The position numbers and the translations under genes were made by a program. Shown piece by piece: positions 4,841 through 40,160 of a DNA stretch of 62,048 nucleotides. Every line of letters begins with the position of its first letter. The stretch's first letter is position 1. A model generated the notes under the pieces. The model saw only the letters and a list, made by a program, of their open reading frames with translations, had not been told where the DNA came from and searched no databases. The stretch covers positions 744,001 to 806,048 of the forward strand of contig ML978134.1 in assembly GCA_010015805.1 (NCBI GenBank), given 5' to 3'. Source of the stretch: Rhizodiscina lignyota (Eukaryota).

Positions 4841-5311
4841 TGCAGGTTCAATGCCAAATAAGGTGTTGTCTGAGACAGGTGGTGCAGTGAGATCTTGAAG
4901 AGAGTAATTGGCACGAGAAAAACGGTCGTTCGCTGTGTGCTCTGGCGGAGTCTCTGAGAGGAGTACTGTCGCGTGAATCAAGGGAGTGGGTGGCTGGGTA
5001 GCTTGAGCGTAGTTGGCTTAGCGGGCTCCAGCATGGACACAGCTCCAGGCGCATGCGGGCTGGGATTCATCGGATTATAGTTTTTCCGGCCGTCGGCCTG
5101 GATGTTCGGCGTGGAGAATCTCAGCCCCGCGCGCCACGCTACCTATCTTAAACGGACCCTTGTTTACTGCATAGCTGATCCTGCAACCTCGATTCCTTCT
5201 TCAAACACCAACTTTCTCCAACCACTCACCTCACAACCCAACCAGCTCACAATCCACACCAGAACTCTCGACATACTAAAAGTACAGTCTCTCCCGGCGT
5301 TTGTCCGCGAC

Positions 5312-16000: not shown

Positions 16001-19000
16001 TTCCTCTTCCTCCTCGATTTCCTCGTCCTGCATGTCAGGCTGAACAGCATGTTGGTGTGATTGAAGGCGACGCGGGCTGGGGCTTGGTGCGTCACTTCTG
16101 AATACTTGTACTGGTGGTTTGAGATCTGGAGTATCGAAGCTAGTAGCGGTGACGGGACGTGAGCTGGATTGCTGAGGCCACGTCGTTTCCGTTCTCTCAA
16201 CACCAATGTCTGAGCCTTCTTCATTAAGCTGCTTCATCACCTCGTCAATATCATTGAACGATGCTTGAGCATCGAAATCGAAGTCCTCCGCTCCACTTGC
16301 GCCCCGCGATTCATCGACCGCAGCCTTCTCTGACTCCTGGTCGGAGATGTTGATAATTGGGCTAGAAGCTTGTGGAAGTTGATCTCTCATCTGCTGCGCC
16401 ACGTCAACAACCATCTCCCTCGTATCATCGTCATCGGTGGGAAGTGGCTCCGGTTCAGGCTCCGGTTCAGGTTCAACGGGCCTCTGCATTGACCATGGCC
16501 TGAATTCAAATGGCTTGGCAGTTGCACTGAGACTGCTCTTCTGTCTCGCATGTTTCGGCTTGGGTTTGTCCTCCTCGCTAATGCCTGCAGCAACGCTGCT
16601 AAGCTTCTGGAACAGGCTGACATCACTGTGCGCATCGTGAAAGTCATTATCCTTATGCTTGCTTGGTTCTGAATCAGGGCTCGAGAGGTGCTGTACAAGC
16701 GGAGGATCATTTGTCGGCGTTGTAGAGCCCTCTTTAGCAAGTAAGTTAGGATCTTGCATGTTTTCGAGATCAAGCGGATGCGAAGGGTATGCAAACTGCG
16801 GTACCGAGTCTCCCTCATCGTCGACGCGGCGAGCACGCTTCTGCCTTCCATCCGACTGTATGGGGCGTCCATCCTCGTCTTCTTGCTGCTCTTCACTGGC
16901 GGTGTGCTGTGGAGAACTTGGTTTGACAATAGGAATAGCCTTAGACTTCTTAGCAGGCTTCACAATGTCATCAAAGTTGATGGGAGAAAAGATTCTATTG
17001 CGAGTGTCGTTGTTGGCATCATGGGTCGAACCAATCGACATGCCTGGTTGGAAGGCCGGCGCGTCTGGCTTGAATGACTTTGTCGACGAATCAAAATTAA
17101 AGTCCTGACTGAAGTTTGAGCCGAAAGAGGCGCTCGGGTTGAATTCAGGCGCTCTGAGGTTCGCTCCCAGGCCGTTGAGGGGCTGCGTGACGTGCGTAAA
17201 AGGAGGAGCTTTTGCAGATGGCTGGAAAGAAAACGCTGCCGGGGAGAAGATACCTGGATTGAACGAAGCACTAGGATTGAACGAAGCGCTAGGATTGAAC
17301 TTAAACTCCTTTGCATCAACATTGAATCTCGACACTGAGGATGCCTTGGACACATGACCAGATGTGGTATACGAGTCTGTTGTCGGGCTGGTGAGCTGGT
17401 CAAATGAGTCTTCGCCTTTTGATACGCTAGACGGAGTCCCATCGGTTGGAGCTGCTGGCTTGTCTTCCGGCTCAATAGTCTTCTCGCGATCCTCCGTGGG
17501 GCTTTCGGGATCAGGATTGGTAACTTTGAGTGTTGAGGGCACTGGCTCATCATCCTCTTCAACAGGTTCTTCAGGAGGCTCGTTAGCGAGCTGGCTATCA
17601 TCAACGAATTCTTTCTTCATAAAATCTTCCAGATGATAGCCATCTTTTTCGACATCCCGTTCCAATTGCACACTAACGTTCTTACTGTGCCGCGGTCTTG
17701 GATTAGCAATTTCCGGGCGCACTGCTTTAGCGTGCTCAATCGGGACTTCCTCTTCATCTTCAACCTCAGGTACTTCCTGGAGCTCTTTCAGCACGGACGA
17801 TGGCCGCCCAATGAGGAACTGTTGTTGCTGTGTCGCCTGAGTGTGCTGATGAGCCTGCAATTGCTGCTGTTGACGTTGCATATGCGCAAGCAGGTCATCG
17901 CGCGCGCCAAATGGAAAGCTCTGCTGACCAGGGAAGTTGAATGGAGATATCGGAGACTTGGCGCCACCAGCTGACACAGGCGGCGGCGCTGACAGGGCAG
18001 AAACCGCAGGAGACGCTGCGCTCACACTGCCATTGGGGAAATGCTGTGGTGACCAGCGCGACATTCCGGGAGGTGTGGGCTGGGGTGGGAAACTAGGAGG
18101 CGAAACGAACATGGATTGTCTGTGCATATGTCCCATTGCACGAGGATTGCCCCCCATGGAGGAAATAGGAGAGGCCATCGACTGCCTCGATTGATGTCCA
18201 GGAACAAAGCCAGGTGGAAACCCAGGGATTTGTTGATGGCTAGCCGCAGATGATGAGAGCGGAGGCGGCGAAAACGCCGTAAATTGACCAAACTGCGATG
18301 ATGATTGGCGAGACAGAGGCGCACTTGATGGTGCAGGAGGTTCATCTCCAAGTGAAACGCCGAGGCGACGGAGTTTCTCTTCTGTGAGAAATTGCACGTA
18401 ATCGTCCCAATCCTTCTTGACCGGAATACGAACATGTGGCTTTGGGCCGGATCGCATATGATCGTGGCTTTCAGGGTAGATGGCACGATTTTGCGATTGG
18501 ATTGCAGACTCATATAGAGTTACACCTCCACTCCAATGACTGAAACCGCGCGTATCATAACCAGCTCTCTCGAAGTTTTCGAGCTTCTTCGCAACCTCAT
18601 ATGGGGTCAATGGGATCAAAGGTGCGCCACTAGTGTCTCGCGGAATGTCATTTGGCAGCAATATCCAGCATGTCTTGCCCTTGCAGACGACACGCTTCTT
18701 TGATGGCGGAGTCCCAGCAGGTCTTAAAGATCCTATCGAGTCCATTGGATTCGAGTCCTGGGTATTTGCAGGCGATGCAATGCCATCAAACATTGGTTCC
18801 TGGGTCTTCACATCCAGGGCTGTTTCCTGGCGCGTGGGGGGAGCTGGTCGCCGTTCTTCGGGGAGAGACTTTGGTACCCTAGCCCATTTTGATTCTATCA
18901 TATTGTCGGCTGCGTCTCTTCTCTGCTTGCCGAGAGCTTCCCAGATATCTTCTTGTCGCACTGTAAGATTACGCTGCCGTGGCTTGTGTCCCTTCTGTCC

Positions 19001-19696
19001 CTCAGCAACGGTCGAGGATTGCTCCAGTGTGGGTTTTGCGGAGAGGACCAACCGAGAGAGATCCCACTCGCCGATGCTACCTTGGCTTGAGGATCGATCT
19101 CCAGTCGAGGAAGCGTCGCTTGGTGAATTGCTCTGCTCAGCGACCAAGCTGTCGTCCAGGGGTGACCGTGCCCTCTGAAGCGCGTCCTTGATCGATCGAA
19201 TACCACGGGTTGGTGTGCTTGGCCTGGTCGGTGTCAAGCCTTGATATGTGGGCAGACGAGAAGGAAGTAGATGTGAAAGGCCAAATCGCTGCGGCGAGCT
19301 GTCGTCAACGTCGTCGCTGCCAACGGCCAAGCTACTCTTCCTCGTAGAGACGTCGCTGTAGCCCGCTGGGATCTTCTGATACGGGCTTCCCCAGCTAGCA
19401 GTGTAGTATCCCTTTTCACTCGTTGAGGACGGTCCCTCAGAAGCAGCCAATGGCGTTTCCCCTAACCTTGCAACTGATGGAAACGGCGGTAGCGGCGGTA
19501 ACTCTGGACTGGATGCGGCGAGTGTTTGCGTAGGAGATAGGGCTTGCTCTTCCTCTGGAACTTCTGGAGGCGAAGTGTACGCGAGCGGTGTCTCGTGTCG
19601 GCTTCGTTCTCCCTCCGGCGGCTGTGTCGCTGGAGTCGCTGGCGGAGGCGACGAGGCAAGGTCTACGCTCGACGCTGTGCTTGTTCGCGATCGCAT
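13037..19696 (-). CDS. Large (2219 aa) protein: low-complexity N-terminal half with PAM2-like motifs and a long C-terminal coiled coil; no myosin motor domain
   Basis: Single 6.66 kb ORF. The N-terminal half is S/P/Q-rich and about 550 aa of the C-terminal half is E/K/R/Q/L heptad-rich. No GESGAGKT myosin P-loop was seen. Confidence 0.85.
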   Translation of the reverse strand: MRSRTSTASSVDLASSPPPATPATQPPEGERSRHETPLAYTSPPEVPEEEQALSPTQTLAASSPELPPLPPFPSVARLGETPLAASEGPSSTSEKGYYTASWGSPYQKIPAGYSDVSTRKSSLAVGSDDVDDSSPQRFGLSHLLPSRLPTYQGLTPTRPSTPTRGIRSIKDALQRARSPLDDSLVAEQSNSPSDASSTGDRSSSQGSIGEWDLSRLVLSAKPTLEQSSTVAEGQKGHKPRQRNLTVRQEDIWEALGKQRRDAADNMIESKWARVPKSLPEERRPAPPTRQETALDVKTQEPMFDGIASPANTQDSNPMDSIGSLRPAGTPPSKKRVVCKGKTCWILLPNDIPRDTSGAPLIPLTPYEVAKKLENFERAGYDTRGFSHWSGGVTLYESAIQSQNRAIYPESHDHMRSGPKPHVRIPVKKDWDDYVQFLTEEKLRRLGVSLGDEPPAPSSAPLSRQSSSQFGQFTAFSPPPLSSSAASHQQIPGFPPGFVPGHQSRQSMASPISSMGGNPRAMGHMHRQSMFVSPPSFPPQPTPPGMSRWSPQHFPNGSVSAASPAVSALSAPPPVSAGGAKSPISPFNFPGQQSFPFGARDDLLAHMQRQQQQLQAHQHTQATQQQQFLIGRPSSVLKELQEVPEVEDEEEVPIEHAKAVRPEIANPRPRHSKNVSVQLERDVEKDGYHLEDFMKKEFVDDSQLANEPPEEPVEEDDEPVPSTLKVTNPDPESPTEDREKTIEPEDKPAAPTDGTPSSVSKGEDSFDQLTSPTTDSYTTSGHVSKASSVSRFNVDAKEFKFNPSASFNPSASFNPGIFSPAAFSFQPSAKAPPFTHVTQPLNGLGANLRAPEFNPSASFGSNFSQDFNFDSSTKSFKPDAPAFQPGMSIGSTHDANNDTRNRIFSPINFDDIVKPAKKSKAIPIVKPSSPQHTASEEQQEDEDGRPIQSDGRQKRARRVDDEGDSVPQFAYPSHPLDLENMQDPNLLAKEGSTTPTNDPPLVQHLSSPDSEPSKHKDNDFHDAHSDVSLFQKLSSVAAGISEEDKPKPKHARQKSSLSATAKPFEFRPWSMQRPVEPEPEPEPEPLPTDDDDTREMVVDVAQQMRDQLPQASSPIINISDQESEKAAVDESRGASGAEDFDFDAQASFNDIDEVMKQLNEEGSDIGVERTETTWPQQSSSRPVTATSFDTPDLKPPVQVFRSDAPSPSPRRLQSHQHAVQPDMQDEEIEEEEEEESAVPRVDPFGDQAAAAYESPAPALLLAQQAEQQGDDWDDIISSTEDDKVQPRSRFFDKHVDSLLNDALSTRLEPLEKTLLAMQENLVVLSNRAVSRHAMRRSREDSDADDEDEEDEQVGSPVRSRSVPRDRRMDKIKAVVQEALMAATQPQRQQTPPKEDVSTPPSGLGIDATEFYQAIADVKASAAFFASKTLQLDEVREMVEETLAKQKEDAVDRGDAITALGPESLQIAELTRTMAELSVKADQALEARKSAETREENVIRQLTLADEELKLLKAATRDEDEMNKAFEKERRALKDQIAEQENKLSSLADQNSALQETLKEYRISHDNWRNDLEASNQEKEKLANTLDAMQFQAQEAMRVRESMRGRLSNLRLEMSTAANQMAQQQAKWNRDDEEHRKRYEVLTARLGAEARTRERLEQEMERLEKQEREGMKLKVMLDETQASNARLEELVSSLKHECSEHQKTADQYAHEFREARESGRAEVQRTRVLMQAEIDALNGQVNIVRADLEAEVARVHTQLENVKMDADTAKERHELILEQEADAKRDALRDAQDARDMALQEQTSIYERQLEELRQQHARALDTLREERSWSEARMAAEHRLELGRVVEDKARSEQLLNEKLTLSDAKTEHLQDKVLHLEEKLEVAKSAAHAAVIAAQSAKATSPTAPMAVQAQTIAPAARFPQKISPQALRESIAVLQEQLQARESRIEDLESELSAVDKDAPNKLKERDTEINWLRELLGVRQDDLSELINALAQPTFNRDAVRNAAIRIRTSLQMELQEKERLMNGGLVGGVQAQVMPALASLSNFASPRAAQLAAAIGNWRKSSTVGAPSGLGLAAQSMSTSSSRTQTPSKPSANAQNFLSGLMTPPQSNLRRTPSPHNAAGGPPDTEMTRPMSSYSSASTSRGNVSPRTTRRAEKQPAFDRVLSPPPRLATPPLLRKASYDQDAETASGEFSAQGFYDDESTVEGDVAPFETFGAGM

Positions 19697-20389: not shown

Positions 20390-21323
20390 TTAAGCAAAGT
20401 CTTCCTCCGCGTTCTCGACGGCGTTCTTGATCCTCAAGAACATTGTCGTCTTCCACGAATCCAATGGACTCAACTGGTTCCACTGGAACAGAGAGCCCTC
20501 GAACGCGTCTTTGTCTCCCTTCTCGATCGCCTCGCCAAGGTCGACCAACAGCTTGTGCTCTCTCTGTGTGGTGAAGTTCGGATCCATCTGCGCATATCCC
20601 TGCAACGCACGGTTGAAGCCCACCATGTCATTTGTGGCAAGGTGGCATATTCCGGCTTTGAATAAATAGTCCTTGACGCTCCACTTCATCGTGTTATTAC
20701 TCAATGAGTCCTTTGCGACCTTCTCGTAGTGCCCTATCGCTTTGTAGTAGTCCTCGGCTAGCGCCGCCAGATCCGCCGCCTTCAGGAAGTTCTTGTTGGC
20801 GATGGACTTGGCGTTATCGTCCTCATACCACTGCCCAGCCGTCTCGAATGCCTCAATCGCGTGCTGGTTGTCTCCCAGATCGATCGAGTATATGTCTCCC
20901 AGTGTCTCCTTATGCGTCGCAGCTCGTCTGAAAGCGCCGCTCAAGGTGTAGTAGTCGATTGCCTGGCTCAGCACCCTCACGCAGCTCTCTGGTGATGTTT
21001 TCCGGTACACTTTTGAAGCTTCCACATAGCTATTTGCTGCATCACCACCCTCCTTCAACTGGTCTTTTTGTATTGCGGCTGCTTTCTCAAAGGCCTGGCC
21101 TGCCGACTCGCCATCCTTTTGTAGCCTGAATGCGTTCGCGGCTTGTGTGTAGAGGTCTGCAGCTTGCTCGAGCTTGTCCGTCTTGCCGCCGAAGAAGGAG
21201 AATCCGCCCTTCCCGCCCGAGGCTGCCTTCTCTGCCTAGTTTGAGATTTAGCATAGAAATCACCGCCGCATCTAAATGATAATACCATACCTGACGGAGA
21301 AGCGCTTGTGGATCTTGAGCCAT
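20390..21323 (-). CDS. SEC17: Vesicular-fusion protein Sec17 (alpha-SNAP)
   Basis: Exon 1 MAQDPQALLRQ, intron 21290-21236, then AEKAASGGKGGFSFFGGKTDKLEQAADLYTQAANAFRLQK...KWSVKDYLFKAGICHLA...DPNFTTQREHKLL...EEDFA, the classic alpha-SNAP signature. Confidence 0.95.
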
Positions 21324-21882: not shown

Positions 21883-24245
21883 TCATATAAGTGTTATCTT
21901 TTCTCGGCTCGCATGCTTGTGGAATTCTTCCTCGGGGGCCCGACCCCGAAACCATCCGCATCGGCGGTAAATCTTAGCTCCTGAATCAACCCTGTTTAAT
22001 ATGATGCCTTCGCAGAACCCTCTCTTCCCTTCCACTTCATCGTCGACTTGTATTGATGGCGGTGATAGCACGAGGTATTCTAACTCCGAAGATCCGCCTT
22101 GTTTGAGAAGAAATTCGTCGCTTTCCCGGTCCATAACAACTTCAAGGCAGTTCGGTACCGTCATTGGATCGACATCAAGGGCAGATCGTAATGGTTGTTT
22201 GATGGGCCGCCGGAGTGCGCATTGAAGCTTCAGTGAAGCCCCTTTCAGGTGTCCGAATGAATTCGATGGGTGCACCAGATCGATGCTGATGTTCGAATTC
22301 AAAATCTTTACTGAGTCTCCAACGAAATACCCAACAAGCTCTAGTCCCAATCTCACTGGCGCATCCAGGGAGAGCCAGGACCATGAAGGGGCTCTCCACT
22401 CGTTCGAAACCCTATTGGAATCGCCTGGTACAGATACACGCCATACGAGATGCCGTTTGAGCCAAGGCCGCCAAAACCCCGCGACGTAGTCACTTGGTTG
22501 CATGTTAGAGATTTCGGAAAACTTCGAGGCAAGACCGGCGAGCGCAGGGAGCTTGTCTGAAGGCCGCGTCAACTTCCGACATGAGTACTCTGTGATGACA
22601 TCTTCCCAGAATGATCTCAACCATGCCTCTGTTCGATGTGTGCTCACTTGTTTAGACAGGCGCTCCTGGATTGATCTGAATTTCTCCCGGAGACGCCTGA
22701 TCGCGGTTTTGTTCCACGGAAATAACACTCTGCGCATACCGCTGGGCTGGCTAGATTCGCAAGTGCACGACCACGACACTTCCGTCTCTCCAAAGAACAG
22801 AAGTCTCGGTGATAACAAATCCTCCTGAAGCGCCCACGAACGTTCGTGGATTGGCTCTCGGATTGAAGCCGAGCCTCTCTGATGCAACTGTATCGTATCC
22901 TCTCTGCCGTCCGGTAAAAGACACGCAACATCGACCGGCGGGGGCCTGCTACCAGATTGATGTGATCTTTCGTTCAAGAACCCATCTTGACAGCTCTTGG
23001 CCGTCGCGGCAGATATGGTCACATACGCGTTAGCGAATATCTCGCCCATGAGCTCGATTTGTCCCTCCCGGTCGCCCTCGTCGTCTTGAACGATACACAA
23101 ACTGTCCACCCAGAGGTATTTAAACCCAAGTCGGCGCGTAACAGTGATGGCATCCTGAATACTTCTTGGAAGCTCGGCTTTGATACCGCAAGCATGCTCA
23201 TTGACATTTGCTCGAGTCGTAACAAGATTCTGTTGGCCGCCCCAGCAGTAGGACAAGCAGGCGTATGGCTCGGATTCCCCCTGGGTGAGGATGACCTTTG
23301 GGTACGCCTTGCTGACATCTATTACTCTCCTTGGGAGTCTCTGCTGGCCCCGCTTTGGAAAGCAAAAGTTCGTATGTTCCTTATCGCATCTTGCTAGCCA
23401 CTCTTCAATCTTCTGATAAGTGAAGTTCGAGCTCACATCGACTACAGGAGGTCTGGTATTGATGTAGTCTGCACTTGGGGAACCTGCCCGTGAATTAGTG
23501 AACTTCTGCCGATGATCATGTTCAGCGGATGGTGCTTACAAGGCTCCGCAACGACGTCGAAGGTCAGTCCGACTGGATAATATCCAGTGATTGTAGGGAC
23601 CTCGACCAACCCTTCGAAATAGTGGTAACAAAAGTTGAATGTGAGCATATCATCCTCGTCCAGAAACTTCCACTTCCAGTATTTGCCCAGCTGCCAGCGG
23701 AAGTGAGTCTGTAAGGCATTGCAGAGAGCACAGCCTGCCTCCACCGAAGTTCTGAAAGACTCTGGCGTGAACTGCGCCTCGTGCAAGTCGGGTATGCTGA
23801 GATTAGGCAGATTTTCAGGATCTTTGAGTTCGACGCACAGTCTTTTGCAGACTTCGCAGAGTCCAGAGTCCAGACTTATCAGGGAATCAATTGATTGGAA
23901 TGCGCTATCCCTTCGTCGGAGTCTTATTTTCCCCTCAAGTTCCAGTGGATATCGAGTAGCCGAATGGTCGATGTAGAGCCATTTCCTTTCGTCATCGACC
24001 TGTTCGAAAGTTTCCCCAATTGTCTCCTCAAGCAGGTCGAAGACTTCGGGTGGTGGGTCTCCCGAGGCATCTTCCTGATTGAACTCAATACTGTATCGAT
24101 CATCCTCAGTTCTTATTTGCAGTAGTACACCTGTTGCATTGGTTGAATAATCTGGCTTCAGTGCGACATCACCCGTGATATCGTGGTCATCCTCGAGGTC
24201 GGTATCATCCGCATCCGAGATTCCCTCATACGCCATTGATGGCAT
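21883..24245 (-). CDS. HET-domain (heterokaryon incompatibility, PF06985-type) protein
   Basis: Motifs LPRRVIDV, YACLSYCWGG, LPRSIQDAITVTRRLGFKYLWVDSLCIVQDD, MGEIFANAYVTISA, RSWALQEDLLSPR and APSWSW. Intron 23539-23484 joins the upstream exon carrying CxxC...CxxC. Confidence 0.92.
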
Positions 24246-25062
24246 GTCGAGTGATAGAGGGAAGTCATTGAAGAGGCCCGAGGTATTTATCGAAGACTAT
24301 GAGAGCTTCTCATTCGTACTAGGTCCAATCAATGCCGCATTCAAGGCCGCTGACCGGTATTGGGTCACAGGCTGCCAACGCACACACCAGCCACCTCACG
24401 AGACGGCAAGACTGCTGCAAGGCCAAAATAGAAGAAGCCACAGCCCATTGGATGCAGCATCGTCGATCGACGAAAGGATAAGTATCTGGTGCGTTTCATG
24501 GTCTGCGGATGCGCTATTCGGTCGAAATTGTGAATAAGGTACCTTGCAGAGGTTGATATCTCCAAGAGTACGAAGTAAGTATGAGGCAGCTCTGTAGGTA
24601 ACATTACGGGAGCGACAGAGCACCTGTAGACCAACCAGTTCCAGGGCATGCTCCACCTAGAGATCGGTACCAAACCACCCCGAAGCTGGCCCTCAAGGCG
24701 TACCAGCTCCGAGTAAGCTCCGAAGGATGCCCCACGCTCATCCTCCAACAAGCATAAATAGAGCAGACGCACGCCCAACTGTTTAGTTCGATAGAGACGT
24801 TTCTATCTCTATATCTCAGCGGAGATCACAGCGCATGATCACATGACAGCGCGTCTCAGCGGCTTCATAGTCAAGTATTTTAGCTCAGCTAGCGTACCAC
24901 AGAATAAGACTTCACCACTCGCAACAGGAGCAACATCATATTGACGATTCCCAGAATGTATTCATGCAACATATAATCCACGATCAACAAACAGACATCT
25001 AACATATAGTAGTGTTGCACGCCATTGCCTTCATCTCCTCCTCCAATGCAGTACGACCATTA

Positions 25063-26055
25063 CTAACAACCAGCAAGCCTTTGAGCGGCATCGGCCGAGC
25101 AAACAGCAGACCAGTGTCCAACTGCCGCAGCACTACCTGTCTGCCACTCATGAATAGCAGTGCCTAACTCCGTCGCAATATTCGGGTGGGAACCTTGGAG
25201 TTTGATGATGGTTCCAGGAGCGTCAATTGTTTCCCAATTACCAGGTATGTTAAGCGTATTTCTCCCGGGCTTCAACTGAAGGTCAGGGACCGTGAGACCC
25301 AACTTCTTCGCCACTGCCTTCTTCCGGAATTTCTCCATGTCCTGAAATCGCATGTCGTGGACCAAATTTGCAGCTTCCTTCCCATCGGTAATGATTGTGT
25401 TAGCAAGAGCTTGTCTAGCATCTCCGGAAAGATCCATGCCTCCTAGATCCCCTAGCGAATCCGCAACTCTGCTGAGCATATCATACCAATTGGATGCATC
25501 AAGAAAGACCCTATTGGCATCGACAGCTCCAGTGATACCAAACCTGCTCACAGGATCCTCCCATGTGAGGATCCTGTTATACAGATTACTGATGGGGACC
25601 TTTGTGAAATCCTCGCCGGCCCCGAGAACAGTAACTGCGGGTCGCGTGATTGACTGACCCTTCTTCGCTTTCCAGATGTACTCGCAGAACTTGTTAAAGG
25701 TGCAGCGGCTCCCGGCAAGAGAGCCTGGACAGCCTGCGCCAATATTGCGATCATCCTCGTCGGGAACCGTTATTTCTTCGGCCAAGTACGCATAGTAGTA
25801 CAGAATTCTATGGATATTAATCAGCTCTGTTCAAACAAGGGCTTCGTCCATATGGTTTCGCCTTCGGTGTGCATATGTCGGTAGAGCCCAGCAGCTACGG
25901 ATTTGGACAATGGCGCCAGATCCAGTTGTCTTGTTTCGTCTGAACACCAACGGGATTGGTTGTACATACCGCTCTGCCGCACCACGAGGACCTTCAGCAA
26001 AAACACGAGAGAGGAGAGTGCTTGAGAGCAATATCCACCCGAGGAAAGTCTTCAT
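25063..26055 (-). CDS. Secreted protein of unknown function (~276 aa), candidate toxin subunit
   Basis: Signal-peptide-like start MKTFLGWILLSSTLLSRVFA|EGPRGAAER. Intron 25969-25808 (GTATGT...GCTGAT...TAG) restores the frame into ILYYYAYLAEE...GAGCPGS...RCTFNKFCEYIW...QRLAGC*. Confidence 0.8.
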
Positions 26056-26960
26056 GTTCCTGAGCGAGGTTGTGCGATCCAGCGCATGCCAGAATATCGG
26101 GGTAAGTTTGAAGGACGGCAGAGACTTTGAGGTCGCTGCAGACAAAGTGTCCTTAATTCAATTTAGTCAGTATTTCCTTTTATAGGTATAAAGAGCTGCG
26201 GAAACACACGCTTGTATGAAAGCTCGAGCACCGAGAGAGATCCTTCGGACTGGGAGGTTACTTAGAGAATGGACGCCTGACTGCAGAACACGCGTAAAAG
26301 AGTGACAATCTTAGAGTGTGCGAATCTAGAAAGAGAAGCATGTATGGAAAGATCGACTCGACCGACACCCGTCCTGCCGTCGCAGTCGTTGAAGGGAATG
26401 AAGGTTGGTCAGACAGTCCCTGAAGAGAACAACTCATGAACAATCGTCAAGGCGAACAAATTGTACGCCGTGCAAGCTACAGCACAAGGAGTGAAATCAG
26501 CCGCGTAGCTCTGGGGAGGCTGTTCGATCGGAGTCATATTGGAAGAACTCGGCGCCACCAGCACATGGAAATTACGCGTTGGGAAGGAATCTTGGGGCGA
26601 AATGTTCGAAACAGAAGCCTTGCAGTAAGGACTGACGAGCGATGTGTGGCTACTTGAGATCGAGAGCTCTCCACGAGACGCGCTTGGATCCCTCAGCTGG
26701 GAGAGAAAACTGGGAGTTAGCTTAATCAGAGTGCCTGAAATGCTTGTCCCAATCTTATTCGGACGTCGAGACAACGGACAGTCGATGAACAGAGTATAGC
26801 TTTAGCTCTCGTCGACAAGTCTGTGCATGCTCCTTCCGATTTCTCTGTCAAACGGGAGGCATGCTTATATATTTTTAGGTCGTTCGGAGTCGAGCAGGTT
26901 GGACGTACAAAGCTTGCTACCACCCCACAGCGAATCATTCTGCCGTCTGGCCCTTGGATA

Positions 26961-27470
26961 GGCGACTATAAGCATCAATCCGCCAAAACTCCACTTTCAG
27001 TTTTTTAGTTTTTAGTTTTCTCTAATACGCCACTTTATACCTCTATAATAATATTTTATCTAAGTCCTAATACCTATATACTTTATTTTATATAGCTTAG
27101 GTGCCTATAGCTCGCTTACTTAGGTACTCGCTAGCTGGCTTGGGTACTCGCTGGCTGGCTTAGGTGCTTGCTGGCTGACTTGGGTGCTCGCTGGCTGGCT
27201 TAGGTGCTCGCTAGCTGACTTAGGTACCTACTATTTCGGTACCTACTACTTTAGTACCTACTACTTCAGTACTTATAGCCTTCTTATTTTTTATACTTAT
27301 AAAAAATAGATAAGTACGTGTAGGAGGGCTTAATTTAAAATAAATAAGAGAGATATTCTCGAATTTTAGTTGTAGGCGATTATTATAGAGGTACGAAGTA
27401 GCGTATTAGAGAAAACTAAAAACTGAAAAACTGAAAGTGGAGTTTTGGCGGATTGATGCTTATAGTCGCC
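26961..27470. mobile_element. Non-autonomous DNA transposon (MITE, ~510 bp) with ~92-bp TIRs, probable TA target-site duplication and RIP-like mutations
   Basis: GGCGACTATAAGCATCAATCCGCCAAAACTCCACTTTCAG... at 26961-27052 is matched by its reverse complement at 27379-27470. TA flanks both ends (26959-60, 27471-72). The interior is AT-rich and encodes no transposase. Confidence 0.88.
27121..27272. repeat. Minisatellites inside the MITE: five 20-bp units then about three 15-bp units
   Basis: T(A/G)GGT(A/G)CT(C/T)GCT(A/G)GCTG(G/A)CT x5 at 27121-27220, then (G/A)GTACCTACTA(T/C)TT(C/T) x3. Confidence 0.9.
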
Positions 27471-28212
27471 TATCCTTGCCGAGGTTCCAAGACCGGTAAG
27501 GCTGAGTTGAAAAGCCACAGCGGTCCTGCATTTTCCCCTGCCAAGCCCACGCTCGGACGTTATCATCCTACGACGCCGCATTCCCTCAGTCACACCTTCA
27601 AAGTAACAACCAGCTAGATTACTTGCGTCTTTGTTTTCCTAAGGCTAGCTCTACTAAGTTTTACGCCTGAACACGGTCTGACTGCCTGTGCCATCCTCGC
27701 CACCCATCGTGAACTGCTGTTCCTTATGCTACCATGCAACCACGACGAAAGAGGAGCCATGTCGCGCTCAGGGAAGCAGTACAATTTCCACTGTCATCAA
27801 TCTATTTCCATCTCGCTGTTATGTTGCAAGTGCTCCTCAGCTTGCATCTTGACTGCCACGCTATTGCAAGCCGTCACTCTCCTCATTGGTTGACTCACCT
27901 GCCCCTGCCTTCTTCACGATGGATTCTGAGGAAGCTGGAAGGCAGAGTGCGGCCAGGCCATGCTAAGTAGCAGTCACCTTTCTTGCACGTCGTCCTTTGC
28001 TTCAAAAATTAGTTTGCTCTGGCCACCCTCTGTGTCAACCATCGCGGTCTTTCGTTCCGCTGGTCTGCTCTTCTTGCGATGTGATAGCTTCTTCTTGCTT
28101 GCACTCGCTCTTTGCTCAAATTTCGAGGCTCTACGGCCGCTTGCAGTCACTGTCATAATTCTTCTACTTCTTGCACTCTTTCTAGTCCCGATCTTTGCTT
28201 TACATATCAGCC

Positions 28213-31200
28213 ATGTGGGCCCGTTCACCGGCCTGGGCGGCCACATTGGCCTTTTTGGGTTTGACATCGCCAGCATTTGCCCTTCAATATATCGATACAC
28301 AATTTTACAGCCAGTTGTCCTCCTGTCCCGACAAATGTATTGGCCAACCTCCAGCAAACTGGACTGTATACACGGCATTCGAACGTCTCAATGCCTGCGA
28401 ACAACCAGTTTTGTTCGATTTTGCCATCCACAACCCGGTCGACGATCCAAATACTGTTACGAAACTTCGTACTTGTACCGCTGGCACCTCAAATGGCACA
28501 GCAGCTGTTTTAGCTGCGAATCAAACTTCTGGCACCTGTCTTCCTTACACTACCAAGAGCCAGGTTTCTCTGGATATAGCTACAACCGGCCGTCAAGGTT
28601 ATGCGTCCATGAAAGACCTTGACGCTGCCTTGGATAAAGTTCAGAGCTATCTGGACGACCCAACCAACTGCGATGCAACCTTCATTGTCGGCCGCTCGAA
28701 AACGACCATTGTGGCCGTATATTCAGGGCGTGGAATTGACAACCGTGCTACGACATCTGCAATCATTCGCCGCCTTGCAACTGAAATCGTCAATTCCACG
28801 ACCTCAAAAACCGTCGTTCTGGAGCTTTGCGGTGATGGACGAAACGCAGATCGTACTCTTGGAGTCGCCATTGATAACAATGGAGACATTGCTGCCATTC
28901 AAAAAGCAGTTGCGACGTGGAGCAATGCTACCTGCGTTAGTGGTATGCAAATATCCAATCAAATGAAGGATGTAACCATCTTTGAGTCGCCGCGGCACTC
29001 TGCTTCGAATTCGACGTCCAGTCACCAGCTTGTCCGGAGGGGTGACTGCAAAACAGCTACAGTTATCAGCGGTGATTCTTGCGGTTCTCTGGCTTCAAAG
29101 TGCGGTATCTCTGCTAGCGACTTCACGAAATACAACTCCGACCCAAAACTATGCTCTTCCCTGACACCGGGGCAGCACGTCTGCTGTTCTGCTGGTACGC
29201 CCCCTGATTTCTCGCCGAGACCCAACGCGGATGGCTCCTGTGCCTCGTATACCGTGAAAACCGGCGACACCTGCTCTTCAATTGCCGCAAACAATGGCTT
29301 GAAAGTAGCCGATGTCAGCAAGTTTAATGACAAGACAACTTGGGGCTGGTTTGGTTGCAATGACCTGATGGCTGGCCTTGCCATCTGTCTTAGTACTGGA
29401 ACGCCACAAATGCCCGCATTTGTCGCGAATGCTGTCTGCGGTCCCACTGTACCAGGCACGAAGCCACCAGCAAAGGGCGAGAACATGACGGATCTCAACC
29501 CGTGCCCATTGAACGCCTGTTGCGATATCTGGGGACAATGCGGGATAACACCCGAATATTGTACTGCAGAGACTGGTACGTATCTCATAGCCCAATTGCA
29601 ATCACCAGCTGTACTGATTTATTGTTTTCAATCGTAGGACCGCAAGGGAACCCGGGAACGGCACCACCTAATCACAATGGCTGCATTTCCAACTGTGGCA
29701 CGAAGATGGCGAATAATGGAAACGGTCCCAACAGCTTCAAGAAGATCGGCTACTACGAGTCTTGGAACTGGGACCGCTCTTGCTTGAACATGAGAGCAGC
29801 AGACCTGGATTCTTCTACGTACACTCATGCTCACTGGGGATTCGCTACAATTACGGATTCCTTTGACGCTTCCATAAATGATACATACAAGCAATGGGAC
29901 GATTTCACCTCACTTTACGGCGTCAAGAAGTAAGCGATTTGCACATATCACTGTTAGCAGTTCACTAATAAGTCAACTTCAGGATCGTTTCGTTCGGCGG
30001 TTGGGGCTACTCTACCGATACTTCTACATATGACGTTCTCCGTAAAGCCATGGATCCTGCGAATGCCGGTACATTCACCACCAACATCGTCAACTTTCTA
30101 AATAAGAACAACTTGGATGGCGTTGATTTCGATTGGGAATACGCCGGCGCCCCAGATATCCCAGGAATTCCTCCAGGTCTGAAAACAGACGGGCCCAACT
30201 ATTTGTCCTTCTTGCAAACCCTCAGGGGGAAGATGCCAGCAGGAAAGACAATCTCGATCGCCGCTCCTGCATCTTTTTGGTATCTCAAGTCGTTCCCGAT
30301 CGCGAAAATGGTGAAAGAGCTGGATTACATTGTCTACATGACTTATGATTTGCATGGCCAGTGGGACTACGGCAATCAGTTCAGTCAAGACGGGTGCCCT
30401 ACGGGAAGCTGTCTGCGAAGCCATGTCAACTTGACAGAAACCAATTATGCCCTCGCCATGATTACAAAAGCAGGTGTCCCAGCTAACATCATTTCTGTTG
30501 GTGTGTCTTCTTATGGCCGCTCCTTCGGCATGACCCAAGCTGGTTGTACAGGCCCTATGTGCCACTTTGGTGGACCCGATTCCACTGCTGCGCCAGGGAT
30601 ATGCACAGTCACCGCGGGCTGCTACATTTCCAACGCTGAGATCCTCAACATCATCGGAGCCAACGATACGAGCATCAAATCTTGGTACGATACGGACAGC
30701 AACTCTGACATATTAGTCTACAATGGCACTCAGTGGGTGGCCTATATGACCGATGTCACAAAGGACTCGAGAACTGGCTATTATAAGAGTCTAAACTTCG
30801 GAGGCACCGTCGACTGGGCAGTTGACCTTCATGAATTCACAGGCGATGATGGAGCTCCGAGTGACAATGATGATGACGACCTGCCACTGCCTGCCCCTAC
30901 TATGCCAGACTGTACAGCTAGCTATACGACTCTTGATGACCTCGGCGCAGCTGGTAACATTCCAGACAACTGCAAGGCCTACTGCATCGTGTCGACGCTC
31001 GGAAACGTTCTTAGTGCGGCAGTAAAGAACTACACTGATATGATGAACGATGGTTACGACGGAAAGTTCGACACCTACTCGCACGCTGTCGCCGACAGCG
31101 CCGGCTCAACAGTCCGAGATTTCGTCAATAATAACGGTAGGTGTGCAAAGAAGGCCCCAAAGGCTAGGCTAATGCGATCCACGTGGCACAGGCAATAAAT

Positions 31201-32402
31201 ACTTCTCATGCATCATCAGCGAGACAGCCGTATGCTGCGACTACTGCAAAGGGGGTGCTCATCCGGCAGATCAATGCAATTACTGCTTTGATGGTAAGAT
31301 CCTTCGTGAATGAAGGTATTTGCATATGTTAATACAGCCTACAGGCGCATGTTACAAGACCTGCAACTCAGAGCTTGGTTGTTCTACCAAGCGCGATGTG
31401 TCTCCGCTCGATGGCCACGAAGCTTTTTATGGAGAGATGCAAAGGCGCGACCACCCCTTCCCAGAACGGGTCCTGATCTCTAAAATGGTTAATGAGACCG
31501 AGCCGTGCCCTCCAGACTACTCGAAGCGTGGCTACGGCCCGGATAATCCGTACGAACAGAGCGTCTACTGGTCATTGGACTCGGACAAAGCCAACAATTT
31601 CTGGGCTGACTTGCTTGACAATACCGGCATTCCGAAGGATAAAATCCAGTTCAAAAGTTATGATCGTGGTAACGACTGTGCCCCATCTGCGAAGCCTGAC
31701 GACGATTGCTGGGGTATCGGGTACGACTACGGCATGCCTACTCCCAGCAGCTACAGTGCCGGCGATGTTGCCAACCCCAAGGATGTTGTGCAAAAGGCGC
31801 TTAGCAATTCGAAGGACCTGCAAAAGCAGATCTCAGATGCTGCAACATCCTTGAAATTAAATTGTTGGGATGGTGAGTATAATGTGATCCCAGAGAGAAC
31901 CACAAACTGTGCTAATTTCATCCACATAGGTGATGGTTTTGAGCTCGTCGACTCCATCTCTCTCCCTGTCCTCATGATTGCGGAAGCAGTCAACGGCATG
32001 GCGCAAGTCGACTCAGTTGCTGACAAGATCGACGAAGAGAAGCGCAAGGCCCTCATCCTGGCGTTCCTTGGAGCCATTCTGTTCTTCGTCCCTGTCGCTG
32101 GCGAAGTCCTCGGGGCTGTTACTGAACTCGCGGACATTGCGAGCATCATCACGATCCTCGGCGCCGTCGGAAACGCCGCGATGGACGTGTACACTATTGT
32201 TGACGACCCGTCAAATGCACCTTTGGCCATCTTCAGCTTGATCCTCGAGCATCTGGCACTGGCTGACCTTGCAAAAATCACGAGAGCTGCGAACATCCGT
32301 CGCGGAATGACTGATGCTGATGTCGCCAAGCTCGGAGACAAAGTTGCTGATAGCATGGGCACGATCAAGAAAATCACCGGAGTCTGCCCCAAGACATCTT
32401 AA
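28213..32402 (+). CDS. Killer-toxin-like subgroup C GH18 chitinase (signal peptide, 2x LysM, CBM18/hevein, GH18, hydrophobic beta-like C-terminus)
   Basis: Signal peptide MWARSPAWAATLAFLGLTSPAFA. LysM domains VISGDSCGSLASKC and YTVKTGDTCSSIA; hevein motif CPLNACCDIWGQCG; SFGGW and an intact DGVDFDWEY catalytic motif; MTYDLHGQWD; hydrophobic C-terminal helices. Introns 29576-29637, 29930-29982, 31137-31191, 31294-31344 and 31873-31929 all keep the frame. Confidence 0.93.
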
Positions 32403-37208: not shown

Positions 37209-39692
37209 CTAACCTAATTTGATTTTGCGTAACTCCGCACCCGTTAAGTAATGGGACAAATCTTTACCTACATTATCATCATTACGCCAAAAAGCCTTCC
37301 CGTCCTCATCAATGGCATCCATTGAAAGCTTGATTGAACCAATGCGTTCGTAGAAATCTTCGACTTTTTCCAGGATTATCAAGAACGGACTACTTGGAAT
37401 GTACTTGGGATCTTCATGATTCACTGGAGGAAGTTGGACCGAGAGCCGTGTAGGATCACCAAGTATGAGGACTTCGTGTTCTCCTGCCTGTATTCCACCA
37501 TCGGCTTCAATAGTCAGATCCATAATCTTGTCGACATAGGCTGTGGCTGCATATCTTCCGGCTGTCGTATTGAATGTTGCGACCCACCGCATCTGGTCCT
37601 CGAACGGGTCCTTGTCCACGAAAGCGACGAGAACGCAACGCGTTACCCAGGTCGTAATAAGAAGAAAATATGGAGCAAATTCACTGTCTGGGGTGCTCGC
37701 CAGTTTGTTGTATTCATCAAAGCCAATACTGTCGCCCTCTTTCTCAAACTCGAATCGTAATTGGGGTGGACAATTGATTCCAGTGTAATAGGCTTCGATA
37801 TATCCAGAAACCCTTCCATCCCATCCAGTCCAGGACCATGTCGGGAAGGAGAGTCTTCGTTTAACATCAGTCTGACCCTCAAGCGTCCAGGAGAGACCAG
37901 CTGCAAAACCTTGCTCAAAAGACCAACCAAGAGTATTATTCCAGAGGATCGGAACCCCACAGATGTGTGAAATATTGAATCGAGGATGGCGAAGCTGTCG
38001 AAGCACACCAAGAAATGCATTTAGGGCGTCCGAACCATATGTTAGGGACCTCGACGTAAACTCACCCAATCGCCTCTCTAAAAGCCATGGGTCGTTTTGG
38101 ACTTGCTTAAGATACTGTGCTGGGAAAACGCGAGAAGTTTCCCCTATCCCGAATGGTGATGAAGGCTCCGAAGTCGCTCTTTCTATCTCGAGTAGATGCG
38201 TTTGATGAGCCAACAGGGCTTCGGGCTCCTGAATGCTCTCCTGTAATGTTGTATGGCGGCACTCAAAATACACCTGGTATTCCGTGAAGTAAAAACAACG
38301 ATGCGACAGAAGGCCTTCTTGATATGTCCATCCTCTAGTGTACCACGTTGAGTATTGAACGGAGGCAACAGGGTGTGGGAGTGACGATGTGAGTTGATAA
38401 TCTCTGAGGTTAAGTCTTGGCTGCAGCGGTCTTATTTTGCTGACCCCTGTCAGGCCGGACCCAGAACCAGTTCCGTCTGCTGCGATAATTGTAAGCTCGG
38501 CGCCCTCATAGATCATATCCATCATGTTAATCTGAGCTTGTCTGATTGTCGCATCGTCATCTGGAATGCAGTAGCGGTCCACCCAGAGAAACTGTAGACC
38601 TAGTTCAAGAGTAACTTTGATAGCATCTTCGATTGTCTGTTCCAGAGCAAAAAAAGGAGGTCCTTTGCTAGGGGCCGGTTCGCCCCAGACATAGCTCAGG
38701 GCTGTATAGCGTATTTGATCAACCACACGGATAACTTGTCTCGAGTTGCAGTCAAGCACTTGGAATCTTGGGACACTGATAAGTTGAAGCCCTCGACACG
38801 ATTCACCATGATTTTCGATGCAGAAATGAAGCCAATGCCGTAGGATAGAATAATCCTTCAGTTGCGGCGGGACTATTCTCGAAGAGATTGTCGATTGCGA
38901 AGAACGGGTCTGGTGGTCGATGAAAATACTTCCAATCATGCCAATTGACTCTCTATGGTATTGATGGTAGAAGTCGTCAAGATCAATCGGACAGCACACA
39001 GGCGGAACCCGTCGGGAGGACCCATCACCGTGTGAGCGTGACAGAATAAGAGCCGATCGGTGAAATTCATTGTGCTGTTCGACCATTGGATTCGGACTCC
39101 TCGTTTTCTGAGGCTTTGACCTGGAATTCCTGGGTTGTTGGATCGCTGTTGAGTCCGCTGCGGTATGATCCTCTGAATCGCCGTCGTAGACATGAGAGTA
39201 CTTCACAAAGTTCGTAGTTGAAATTAAGCCAATGAAGACCCAGTCATCATCTGGCATATCACTACGGTCCCAGAGGCAGGCGAATAGTCCGCATAATTTG
39301 CACCCTGGAGCGGGCCACTTTCCCCCACGAGGACCTAGTATTCGGACTGGATGGATCTCGCCATGTCTGATCCGTTTGCTGCACAAGACACTAAAGTCCA
39401 TTTTGGCGCACTCATCGCAAAGGTCGTCAAGATCACCAACTGACGACGCCTCGGAGTGACTGTCCCTTTCCGGGTAGTAGTCGTAAGAAGGGTTATCATG
39501 ATCATTAGTTGGAGGTGCCTCGGAGTAGTCGTCCATTTCTGAATCATCGTCGTAAGGACGGCTGTCATCATCATCTGACGATGCCTCAGAGCAGCCGTCT
39601 ATTTCTGCATCATCGTCGTAGGAAGGGTTGTCATGATGCGCCTCGGCAGAGTTCACAGCCGTCCCTTGCTCGCTCGAATGTCCTTCTGCCAT
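37209..39692 (-). CDS. HET-domain protein with an acidic repeat N-terminus
   Basis: 827-aa ORF with YTALSYVWG, TIEDAIKVTLELGLQFLWVDRYCI, MDMIYEGAELTIIAA, WYTRGWTYQEGLLS and FPTWSWTGW. Confidence 0.92.
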   Translation of the reverse strand: MAEGHSSEQGTAVNSAEAHHDNPSYDDDAEIDGCSEASSDDDDSRPYDDDSEMDDYSEAPPTNDHDNPSYDYYPERDSHSEASSVGDLDDLCDECAKMDFSVLCSKRIRHGEIHPVRILGPRGGKWPAPGCKLCGLFACLWDRSDMPDDDWVFIGLISTTNFVKYSHVYDGDSEDHTAADSTAIQQPRNSRSKPQKTRSPNPMVEQHNEFHRSALILSRSHGDGSSRRVPPVCCPIDLDDFYHQYHRESIGMIGSIFIDHQTRSSQSTISSRIVPPQLKDYSILRHWLHFCIENHGESCRGLQLISVPRFQVLDCNSRQVIRVVDQIRYTALSYVWGEPAPSKGPPFFALEQTIEDAIKVTLELGLQFLWVDRYCIPDDDATIRQAQINMMDMIYEGAELTIIAADGTGSGSGLTGVSKIRPLQPRLNLRDYQLTSSLPHPVASVQYSTWYTRGWTYQEGLLSHRCFYFTEYQVYFECRHTTLQESIQEPEALLAHQTHLLEIERATSEPSSPFGIGETSRVFPAQYLKQVQNDPWLLERRLGEFTSRSLTYGSDALNAFLGVLRQLRHPRFNISHICGVPILWNNTLGWSFEQGFAAGLSWTLEGQTDVKRRLSFPTWSWTGWDGRVSGYIEAYYTGINCPPQLRFEFEKEGDSIGFDEYNKLASTPDSEFAPYFLLITTWVTRCVLVAFVDKDPFEDQMRWVATFNTTAGRYAATAYVDKIMDLTIEADGGIQAGEHEVLILGDPTRLSVQLPPVNHEDPKYIPSSPFLIILEKVEDFYERIGSIKLSMDAIDEDGKAFWRNDDNVGKDLSHYLTGAELRKIKLG

Positions 39693-40160
39693 GATGAAAA
39701 ATTAGGTGTTGCATCTAGCAATCTTGGATCTGTTTCCCATCTTTAGGCTACTTTCTCTTGGAGTTGAGAAATCGGTGGCCGGTTACGGAGGCACATGAAG
39801 AACTGTAGAAAAGAGATCGGAAGAAGTATTATAGCGAAAGTCACGCGGCTAGCAGCAATACAAGGCTGGGGATCAGCGTAAGGTTGAGCTGTAACCTGCA
39901 GAATCTAAGAGCGTCCTTCGAGCGAGACAATCTCATTTGCCACAAAGACTGGACAGAGTGCTCCTTACCCTGAAACGTGAGTGAATTCCATAATAATATG
40001 TGCATGTGTACAGTTCTAGCCTGCTATCTCAGCCTAATAATGGAAGAGTGATATTTATGTTGTTGTGATGTTCTAGTGGCCCTGGGGCGTCCAGAAACCA
40101 GCAGAATGAAGGGTGCTTGACGAAGGGACCCACTCACTTATGAATCACGTTAGTAGTACA

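Follow-up and report, generated by a model that had tools for sequence, protein, structure and literature searches.

The stretch of DNA analyzed here (62,048 bp, referred to below as the window) comes from Rhizodiscina lignyota, a wood-dwelling fungus of the Dothideomycetes. It contains two divergent genes arranged head-to-head, one encoding a 276-aa secreted protein on the minus strand, which we call the cargo, and the other a 1,303-aa LysM-LysM-CBM18-GH18 chitinase on the plus strand. Their start codons lie at 26055 and 28213, and the measured separation of 2,157 bp agrees with the distance of about 2.15 kb given by the initial annotation. The features of the locus are listed below.

25063..25807, minus strand: cargo exon 2 including the stop codon (coding 25807-25066, stop 25065-25063), with the block ILYYYAY...GCPG...RCTFNKF, Cys55 and Cys64
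25068-25066, minus strand: codon of Cys276, the C-terminal residue of the cargo
25116-25114, minus strand: codon of His260 of the cargo
25350-25348, minus strand: codon of Arg182, invariant in the cargo family
25808..25969, minus strand: cargo intron GTATGT...TAG, interrupting the Arg29 codon between its second and third bases
25970..26055, minus strand: cargo exon 1, identical to the NCBI protein, with a signal-like peptide (residues 1-20) and the mature start EGPRGAAE
25974-25972, minus strand: codon of Glu28, residue 8 (Glu-8) of the mature cargo as predicted
26056..28212, no strand: intergenic region between the divergent start codons
26956..27475, no strand: 520-bp element with 97-nt terminal inverted repeats that are 96% complementary
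28213..29575, plus strand: chitinase exon 1, with a signal-like peptide, an N-terminal domain of ~240 aa, two LysM and a CBM18-like module
29638..29929, plus strand: chitinase exon 2, start of GH18, matching NCBI model P0065
29983..31136, plus strand: chitinase exon 3, GH18 catalytic domain with DGVDFDWE at 30116-30139
31192..31293, plus strand: chitinase exon 4, Cys-rich linker, with equivalent uninterrupted coding sequence in the metagenome contig L002 described below
31345..31872, plus strand: chitinase exon 5, linker and first half of the beta-like region, with the dibasic STKR at 31383-31394
31518-31532, plus strand: highly conserved YSKRG dibasic site in chitinase exon 5
31930..32402, plus strand: chitinase exon 6 including the stop codon, with EEKRK at 32034-32048 and a hydrophobic helical region from 32049
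32379-32399, plus strand: GVCPKTS in chitinase exon 6 with Cys1299, five residues before the C-terminus

The two genes and the region between them

The cargo translation matches the NCBI protein NA57DRAFT_80438 of Rhizodiscina lignyota letter for letter over its 276 aa. The protein begins with a hydrophobic, signal-like stretch that ends in VFA/EG, where the cleavage site (slash) and hence the Glu-8 numbering were judged by eye. Pfam searches assigned no family to the cargo at E<=0.1 and none to the NCBI protein (P0002) at E<=10, which bears out the earlier description of a secreted protein without a recognised domain. Assignments as a LysM-only effector or as an Hce2-domain protein were rejected since Pfam found neither domain. 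The ESM Atlas gave no usable feature match for the cargo, and the Atlas's own model was poor (pLDDT 0.32). The mature cargo contains five cysteines, and three cysteines (55, 64 and 276) are found family-wide. Both numbers are odd, so one cysteine would be left unpaired within a monomer.

The chitinase gene consists of six exons (ATG at 28213, stop at 32400-32402) and is named ‘killer toxin alpha/beta’ by NCBI. The NCBI model P0065 removes 96 nt of exon 1 as an intron; these 96 nt fit the consensus SxLxPCPxxCxGxPxxWTVY of the homologues. Pfam detected two LysM stretches (E 1.2e-14) and GH18 (E 5e-34 for exon 3, 4e-39 for P0065), while Chitin_bind_1/CBM18 scored 27.5 bits, slightly below the Pfam cut-off of 27.8, and is present as PF00187 in the precomputed Pfam list. 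The GH18 motif DxxDxDxE is intact (DGVDFDWE), and the corresponding columns of an alignment of 48 chitinase homologues (A3) hold D in 44/48, D in 44/48 and E in 45/48. The domain order and intact motif reported by the initial annotation were thus recovered by Pfam and sequence, and its long hydrophobic C-terminal region corresponds to stretches near the C-terminus with a Kyte-Doolittle 19-residue mean above 1.6. LysM marks chitinase subgroup C-II (bioRxiv 10.1101/2024.10.25.620242), to which we assign this protein by architecture alone.

Cys1299 is kept in 46 of the 48 aligned chitinases as well as in L002, and the last cysteine lies 2-7 residues before the C-terminus in 42 of the 48. The C-terminal 351 aa of the chitinase match 90 longer proteins, most of them of the same architecture; the closest named relatives of the chitinase come from lichen-forming Trypetheliales. 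This beta-like module was also found after GH71 and pectate-lyase-like heads in other fungi. A model of the beta-like region (L002 copy, pLDDT 73.8) gave no Foldseek match at E<=0.001.

The intergenic region may serve as a bidirectional promoter; Pfam matched none of the ORFs inside it. Between its inverted repeats, the 520-bp element within this region encloses tandem repeats of 20 and 15 nt, and it resembles a miniature inverted-repeat transposon. HET and OYE genes are the neighbours of the pair in the window, where a Pfam search gave no telling match near the pair and no immunity gene was recognised by it.

Conservation and predicted fold of the cargo

The family of the cargo counts at least 59 representatives at 50% identity, and the conservation counts given here are based on an alignment of 48 of its sequences (A1). 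Cys64 and Arg182 are present in all 48, His260 in 45/48, Cys276 in 44/48 and Cys55 in 43/48. The pattern x-G-x-x-x-x-x-E, which includes Glu-8, occurs in the L002 homologue and in 12 of the 13 A1 sequences that retain a signal-like start. The N-terminal block GPRGAAERILYYYAY...GCPG...CTFNKF, already noted as conserved-looking, is the best conserved region of the family. A word-indexed profile search found five proteins, and the named members were from Aspergillus sclerotiicarbonarius and A. sclerotioniger only. Neither the cargo alignment nor the chitinase beta-like region matched any viral contig.

Family profile searches against PDB sequences, together with Pfam, gave no significant sequence similarity between the cargo and characterised toxins. 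Weak and non-significant rows were all that the profile returned from the PDB chain sequences (PoxtA at E 0.05, CdiA tRNases at E 0.11), and 4O87/4O88 was not among its matches to all PDB chain sequences even at E<=10. 4O87 is the yeast toxin PaT (bioRxiv 10.1101/2024.09.27.615389, Fig. S4 legend). The AF2 model of the cargo has high confidence (pLDDT 94.1, pTM 0.89), and a Foldseek search with this model, as the initial annotation had suggested, placed 4O87/4O88 at ranks 1, 2, 3 and 5 with E 0.3 and TM about 0.33. VIA-align comparisons to PaT gave Z 8.2 (189 residues, rmsd 4.5 A) and Z 7.5, the following row scoring 5.2. A Foldseek-independent scan of 48,161 chains also ranked 4O88_A first (Z 7.1, 184 residues, model 22-275 against chain 3-300); the runner-up reached Z 5.6 over 61 residues only, and PaT alone spans the whole cargo. 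Z values below about 13 can reflect an arrangement common in helical proteins, and the PaT match falls at Z 7.1-8.2. We therefore describe the predicted resemblance of the cargo to PaT, which extends over the whole length of the model, as moderate.

Based on the aligned ranges, Glu28 lies opposite chain residue 9 and His260 opposite residues ~285-286, an approximate equivalence that assumes gapless ends. This places Glu28 and His260 close to Glu-8/9 and His287 of PaT. In the gamma-toxin of Kluyveromyces lactis, the comparable residues are Glu9 and Arg151. The catalytic histidines are His209 in gamma-toxin and His287 in PaT (PMC3775755). The effector activity of the cargo, left unassigned by the initial annotation, is most likely that of a ribonuclease. 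The high-confidence model ties a Pezizomycotina toxin candidate by structure to PaT, a yeast toxin of solved structure, with no link seen at the sequence level. The structural link supports a shared ancestry of these toxins and names three residues as targets for mutation.

Pairing in other loci and interpretation

The initial annotation had suggested counting how often homologues of the cargo neighbour such chitinases. A metagenome scan with nine closer sequences of the family found four loci (L001-L004), one of which is informative for linkage. On the contig L002, a cargo homologue (48% identity) lies head-to-head with a chitinase (60-74% identity) across a gap of about 1 kb, and the cargo intron is at the same position (GAG CG/GTACGT). 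L003 and L004 carry an identical 40-residue partial match and no GH18 was found on either contig (5.4 kb and 2.4 kb), while L001 lacks the upstream side. Judging by sequence identity, the L002 host may be a fairly close relative of Rhizodiscina lignyota. A tblastx comparison of the window with the 12.9-kb L002 contig detected no similarity beyond these two genes and no shared third gene. The L002 pair adjoins an ankyrin-repeat gene, whereas HET and OYE genes occupy this position in the window. Since these two genes are all that L002 and the window share, the pairing does not reflect general synteny.

Together, the residue marks of the cargo (Glu-8, Arg, His and Cys), the partner cysteine of the chitinase, the fold match to PaT and the pair conserved between other neighbours in a second organism support the proposal of the initial annotation that the 276-aa protein corresponds to gamma and is carried by a zymocin-like chitinase. 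The locus is probably a zymocin-like killer toxin cluster located on a chromosome, similar in kind to those that Heneghan, Salzberg and Wolfe described in Pezizomycotina but reduced to a pair of genes. In this reading, the alpha/beta precursor would be the 1,303-aa protein, whose LysM, CBM18 and GH18 modules would attach to the chitin in the wall of another fungus and breach it. Cleavage of the Kex2 type at the conserved dibasic site YSKR/G, or at STKR/D upstream, would free a beta-like piece of about 270-320 aa, helical, partly hydrophobic and with the conserved cysteine at its end. The 276-aa protein would be the secreted gamma subunit, with Cys276 disulfide-linked to the C-terminal cysteine of the beta-like piece. 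After entry into the target cell, the gamma subunit would cleave a tRNA or rRNA loop as an endoribonuclease, with Glu-8, Arg182 and His260 as putative catalytic residues by analogy with the K. lactis gamma-toxin and PaT.

The cargo could also be carried by the chitinase through the same disulfide logic without being a ribonuclease, having some other activity, inside the cell or directed at the wall, and a shared helical arrangement alone would then account for its likeness to PaT. Such a cargo would fit the moderate fold match (Foldseek E 0.3, Z 7-8) and the lack of a sequence-level tie to PaT. However, gamma-toxin and PaT use the same residue types, at matching relative positions, as the Glu-8, invariant Arg and near-invariant His of the cargo family, and PaT was the single top match of the 48,161 chains and alone covered the whole protein. 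We consider a non-ribonuclease cargo unlikely. A further possibility is that the two genes are neighbours with a common promoter region whose products form no complex, the cargo acting separately as a secreted effector or wall protein, with plain synteny between related organisms behind the L002 pairing. The single informative second locus, the weaker relative on L003/L004 with no chitinase on its contig, and the existence of some C-II chitinases without an adjacent toxin gene (bioRxiv 10.1101/2024.10.25.620242) are all compatible with this. Yet L002 and the window have just these two genes in common, the terminal cysteine is conserved in both partners, and pairing is the rule in the published clusters, with a terminal cysteine in 29 of the 31 chitinases adjoining a toxin gene (bioRxiv 10.1101/2024.10.25.620242); mere neighbourhood seems quite improbable.

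The pair might also be an inactive relic, in which both frames are intact but killing activity has been lost or neither gene is expressed. Two toxins of the Pezizomycotina toxin/chitinase/immunity clusters arrest yeast growth, while one of the three candidates, from P. robsamsonii, was non-toxic in yeast (bioRxiv 10.1101/2024.10.25.620242), so the sequence marks do not guarantee activity. The transposon-like element within the shared promoter region would also fit a relic, and the lack of any RNA run listed for this stretch says nothing either way. Against this, both genes are intact with canonical splice sites and every conserved residue is present, including the GH18 motif, which makes a relic very improbable. 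Returning to a functional toxin and carrier pair, a broader proposal would be that the cargo family forms a tenth gamma-toxin sequence group beyond the published nine, with its own RNA target, that Dothideomycetes including Trypetheliales keep such toxins by vertical descent, and that the beta-like module is a general toxin-import module of wall hydrolases. We offer this as a tentative and on balance doubtful extension.

Comparison with known toxin systems

The locus opens no new kind of system. The idea of such clusters has been published by Heneghan et al. (bioRxiv 10.1101/2024.10.25.620242; journal version Fungal Genet Biol 2025;176:103957, as cited in PMC13556262), and their description of toxin/chitinase/immunity clusters in Pezizomycotina makes outdated the view of the initial annotation that most cargo of such chitinases had yet to be identified. 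The main text of the preprint mentions neither AlphaFold nor Foldseek, and the PaT fold match of the cargo is an addition to that work.

Zymocin of Kluyveromyces lactis (pGKL1) resembles the pair in that its chitinase precursor carries LysM and GH18 and is hydrophobic in its C-terminal part, and in having a separately encoded toxin of similar size that is disulfide-linked through a cysteine near its C-terminus. It differs in that its toxin has no detectable sequence similarity to the cargo, while the genes described here are chromosomal with introns and no immunity gene was recognised around them. PaT of Millerozyma (Pichia) acaciae (PaOrf2, PDB 4O87/4O88) is the best structural match, with Z 7.1-8.2 over 184-189 residues. 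It shares an N-terminal Glu and a C-proximal His at corresponding places and is likewise a secreted toxin with a chitin-binding carrier. Identity in the structural alignments is only 8-12%, with no sequence-profile match to the cargo, and the PaT gene is intronless on a cytoplasmic linear plasmid, whereas the cargo gene is nuclear with one intron.

The Tox-P1 to Tox-P9 clusters are alike in that a C-II-type LysM/GH18 chitinase adjoins a small secreted protein, and they share Glu-8, the C-terminal cysteine of the toxin, the cysteine near the chitinase C-terminus and introns. The cargo, at 276 aa, is within the range of 226-366 aa given for gamma toxins of Pezizomycotina (PMC13348850). Many of these clusters are without an immunity gene, and their flanking genes vary between genomes, as do those of the two pairs described here, which suggests that the genes of a cluster are transferred together. 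The published set differs in having no Dothideomycetes: the survey, as described in the preprint, found no clusters in Dothideomycetes or Leotiomycetes (bioRxiv 10.1101/2024.10.25.620242). Zymocin-like toxins are weapons of fungus against fungus with a possible use in biocontrol, and Dothideomycetes are a very large class with many plant pathogens and lichen fungi. A Dothideomycete locus with all the sequence marks and a conserved twin on a metagenome contig fills this gap and suggests that the distribution of such clusters is wider than reported.

Gene models at the locus and its surroundings

The window is of fungal origin. The 276-aa secreted protein proposed as a toxin cargo is the same, residue for residue, as hypothetical protein NA57DRAFT_80438, which belongs to Rhizodiscina lignyota (Dothideomycetes, Aulographales). 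The chitinase proposed as its carrier corresponds to P0065, an NCBI model named killer toxin alpha/beta. The features of the locus and its surroundings are listed below.

5081-9019: DEAD-box helicase gene
13040-19696, minus strand: open frame of 2,219 codons, weak coiled-coil-type hit only
20393-21235: SNAP gene
21886-24296, minus strand: HET-domain (heterokaryon incompatibility) gene, directly downstream of the cargo gene
26055-25970, minus strand: cargo exon 1 (gene model)
between 26055-25970 and 25807-25066, minus strand: cargo intron, 162 nt, ends GTATGT...TAG
25807-25066, minus strand: cargo exon 2 (gene model); stop codon 25065-25063
26956-27475: element of 520 bp, bounded by 97-nt inverted repeats (96% complementary), within the presumed shared promoter region
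28213-32402, plus strand: chitinase gene, six exons, 1,303 aa
28213-29575, 29638-29929, 29983-31136, plus strand: chitinase exons 1-3
31192-31293, 31345-31872, 31930-32399, plus strand: chitinase exons 4-6
37212-39701, minus strand: second HET-domain (heterokaryon incompatibility) gene, near the toxin pair

The start codons of the two genes are divergent and 2,157 bp apart. Cargo residues 1-20 form a hydrophobic signal-like stretch ending in VFA, the cleavage site being read by eye. Pfam recognized two LysM modules and GH18 in the chitinase, while Chitin_bind_1 scored just below its cut-off (27.5 bits vs 27.8); the DGVDFDWE of GH18 is intact. The initial annotation's description of the locus was borne out in every point.

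Our chitinase model equals P0065 (1,271 aa) apart from 32 residues near the N-terminus, where P0065 splices out 96 in-frame bases as an intron (approx. 28258-28353). Since the removed residues complete a signal-like peptide and match a conserved Cys-containing motif in the consensus of 48 homologues, this intron call is probably wrong. The R. lignyota chitinase has an N-terminal domain of about 240 aa ahead of its LysM modules. This domain is absent in the metagenome relatives (contig L002, about 5010, and protein P0066), which begin almost at the LysM region.

The 520-bp element carries 20-nt and 15-nt tandem repeats between its inverted repeats and looks like an inserted miniature inverted-repeat transposon. 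Part of the wider spacing of the two genes in the window (2.16 kb vs about 1 kb in L002) is due to this element. The pair lies between a HET-domain gene and a gene for an Old Yellow Enzyme. The 2,219-codon frame, whose region is adjoined by the helicase and SNAP genes, returned no Pfam family besides the coiled-coil-type hit.

Conservation of the pair and of the cargo family

A metagenome scan with the cargo family gave four loci. One (L001) is cut off within the cargo gene and says nothing about linkage; L003 (5.4 kb) and L004 (2.4 kb) carry one and the same 40-residue partial match, and no GH18 was found on either. The single informative relative (n=1), the 12.9-kb contig L002, is linked. 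It encodes a cargo homologue of 48% identity that has a signal peptide and Glu-8, and whose intron falls at the codon position seen in R. lignyota. About 1 kb away, on the opposite strand, lies a chitinase homologue of 60-74% identity per exon with the same terminal Cys. Tblastx over the whole contig found nothing common to L002 and the window beyond this pair, and the neighbors differ: the next gene in L002 encodes ankyrin repeats, while HET and Old Yellow Enzyme genes are found in the window. The pair is therefore kept as a unit in different surroundings. The greater divergence of the cargo than of the carrier (48% vs 60-74% identity) fits the fast evolution reported for zymocin-like toxins.

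No Pfam family was found for the cargo protein in a Pfam search. HMMER against 1.84 billion representatives gave 59 relatives at E<=0.001 (25 at E<=1e-10, 9 at E<=1e-30), mostly 230-330 aa long. Relatives found with an organism name come only from Aspergillus sclerotiicarbonarius and A. sclerotioniger. We aligned 46 of the 59 with the R. lignyota protein (P0002) and P0003, leaving out 13 short fragments or much longer sequences. Among these 48 sequences, Cys64 and Arg182 are invariant (48/48 each), followed by Pro85 (47), Thr228 (46), His260 (45), Cys276 (44) and Cys55 (43). The cysteines are odd in number, three family-wide and five in the mature R. lignyota cargo. Gene calls begin at or past the YYYAY block in 35/48 cases, evidently lacking the short first exon. 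The pattern A/G↓x-G-x-x-x-x-x-E-R/K occurs in 12 of the 13 members with a signal-like N-terminus, so that residue 8 of their predicted mature chains is a Glu, as in the full cargo gene on L002. The family profile also gave weak, non-significant matches (E 0.11-0.63) to three bacterial CdiA tRNA-nuclease chains, 8ZYC, 5J43 and 5J5V, over profile positions 51-150, which surround the DYYDAL motif; the resemblance may be due to chance.

Predicted cargo fold and the carrier C-terminal part

The AlphaFold2 model of the cargo, built from the 48-sequence alignment, is confident and mostly helical (mean pLDDT 94.1, pTM 0.89). Foldseek gave no PDB match at E<=0.001. The search, a check proposed in the initial annotation, placed chains of 4O87/4O88 at ranks 1, 2, 3 and 5 with E 0.3-1.0. 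The first of these entries is the Millerozyma acaciae killer toxin PaT (figure legend, bioRxiv 10.1101/2024.09.27.615389). VIA-align of the Foldseek candidates gave the PaT structures Z 8.2 (model 19-275 vs chain 0-301, 189 residues superposed at rmsd 4.5 A) and Z 7.5, with 5.2 for the following entry. 4O88_A also came first when 48,161 representative chains were scanned independently of Foldseek (Z 7.1, 184 residues, model 22-275 vs chain 3-300), the runner-up reaching Z 5.6 over 61 residues only. The scoring tool cautions that helical proteins may commonly share Z values under about 13, so this match is not proof by itself. It carries weight because the gene context predicted it beforehand, it tops both searches and it is the only whole-protein hit. 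PaT was not found by sequence with the family profile. The catalytic residues of gamma-toxin include Glu9 and Arg151. Assuming that the alignment ends run without gaps, Glu28 lies approximately opposite chain residue 9 and His260 opposite about 285-286; the catalytic His is His287 in PaT and His209 in gamma-toxin (PMC3775755).

The last 351 translated residues of the chitinase match 90 longer proteins, of which 48 were aligned. The Cys five residues from the chitinase end is kept in 46/48 homologues, and 42/48 have their last Cys 2-7 residues before the C-terminus. Three dibasic sequences are candidate Kex2-type cleavage sites: STKR, which follows the Cys-rich linker (26/31 sequences with a residue there have R), YSKRG within the strongly conserved stretch EPCPPDYSKRG (37/48 with K or R, followed by R in 44/48) and EEKRK, immediately ahead of the hydrophobic helices. 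A cut at YSKR↓G would yield a piece of about 270 residues, close in size to zymocin's beta subunit (30 kDa). Modelled on the L002 copy, this beta-like region is predicted to be helical at moderate confidence (pLDDT 73.8) and has no clear match in PDB. The domain also stands behind a GH71 (PF03659) head in Aspergillus pseudoviridinutans, and Orbilia and Dactylellina carry it behind pectate-lyase-like domains (PF12708; P0091, P0097, P0103 and P0105 are the proteins with these other heads). A GH71 case in A. flavus is mentioned by Heneghan et al. (bioRxiv 10.1101/2024.10.25.620242). Such architectures suggest a delivery module common to different wall hydrolases. The source's precomputed Pfam list assigns PF26794 to many of these chitinases; a separate Pfam search did not return it for P0065.

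In a quick tree built from 282 alignment columns of this domain in 48 sequences, with SH-aLRT as the only support measure, the R. lignyota chitinase groups with a JGI metagenome protein and two Trypetheliales (Dothideomycetes) at SH-aLRT 85, under the tool's starred level, which hints at descent within Dothideomycetes rather than recent import.

Comparison with published zymocin-like clusters

Nuclear clusters of a gamma-toxin gene and a C-II chitinase gene, with or without an immunity gene, are described from Pezizomycotina in the accessible text of Heneghan et al. (bioRxiv 10.1101/2024.10.25.620242). Their toxins form nine sequence groups, mutually dissimilar and unlike yeast toxins. Among 50 candidates, Glu-8 is present in all but 4 and a Cys near the C-terminus in all but 5; the terminal Cys occurs in 29/31 chitinases adjoining a toxin gene, and 2/3 toxins tested stopped growth of S. 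cerevisiae. The same picture recurs in a subsequent review and in a paper in GBE; these put the length of Pezizomycotina toxins at 226-366 aa. The R. lignyota locus carries each of these sequence marks and is taken to be a genuine zymocin-like toxin module made up of two genes. The module proposed in the initial annotation was right in substance; as a new idea it was already in print. The predicted cargo model would add a useful structural link to PaT.

What is still new is the host class. The published supplements may already list the cargo family. Among the papers found on zymocin and Dothideomycetes, apparently only that preprint treats such clusters. Heneghan et al. report none in Leotiomycetes or Dothideomycetes, whereas the R. 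lignyota pair belongs to a Dothideomycete and extends zymocin-like clusters to this class.
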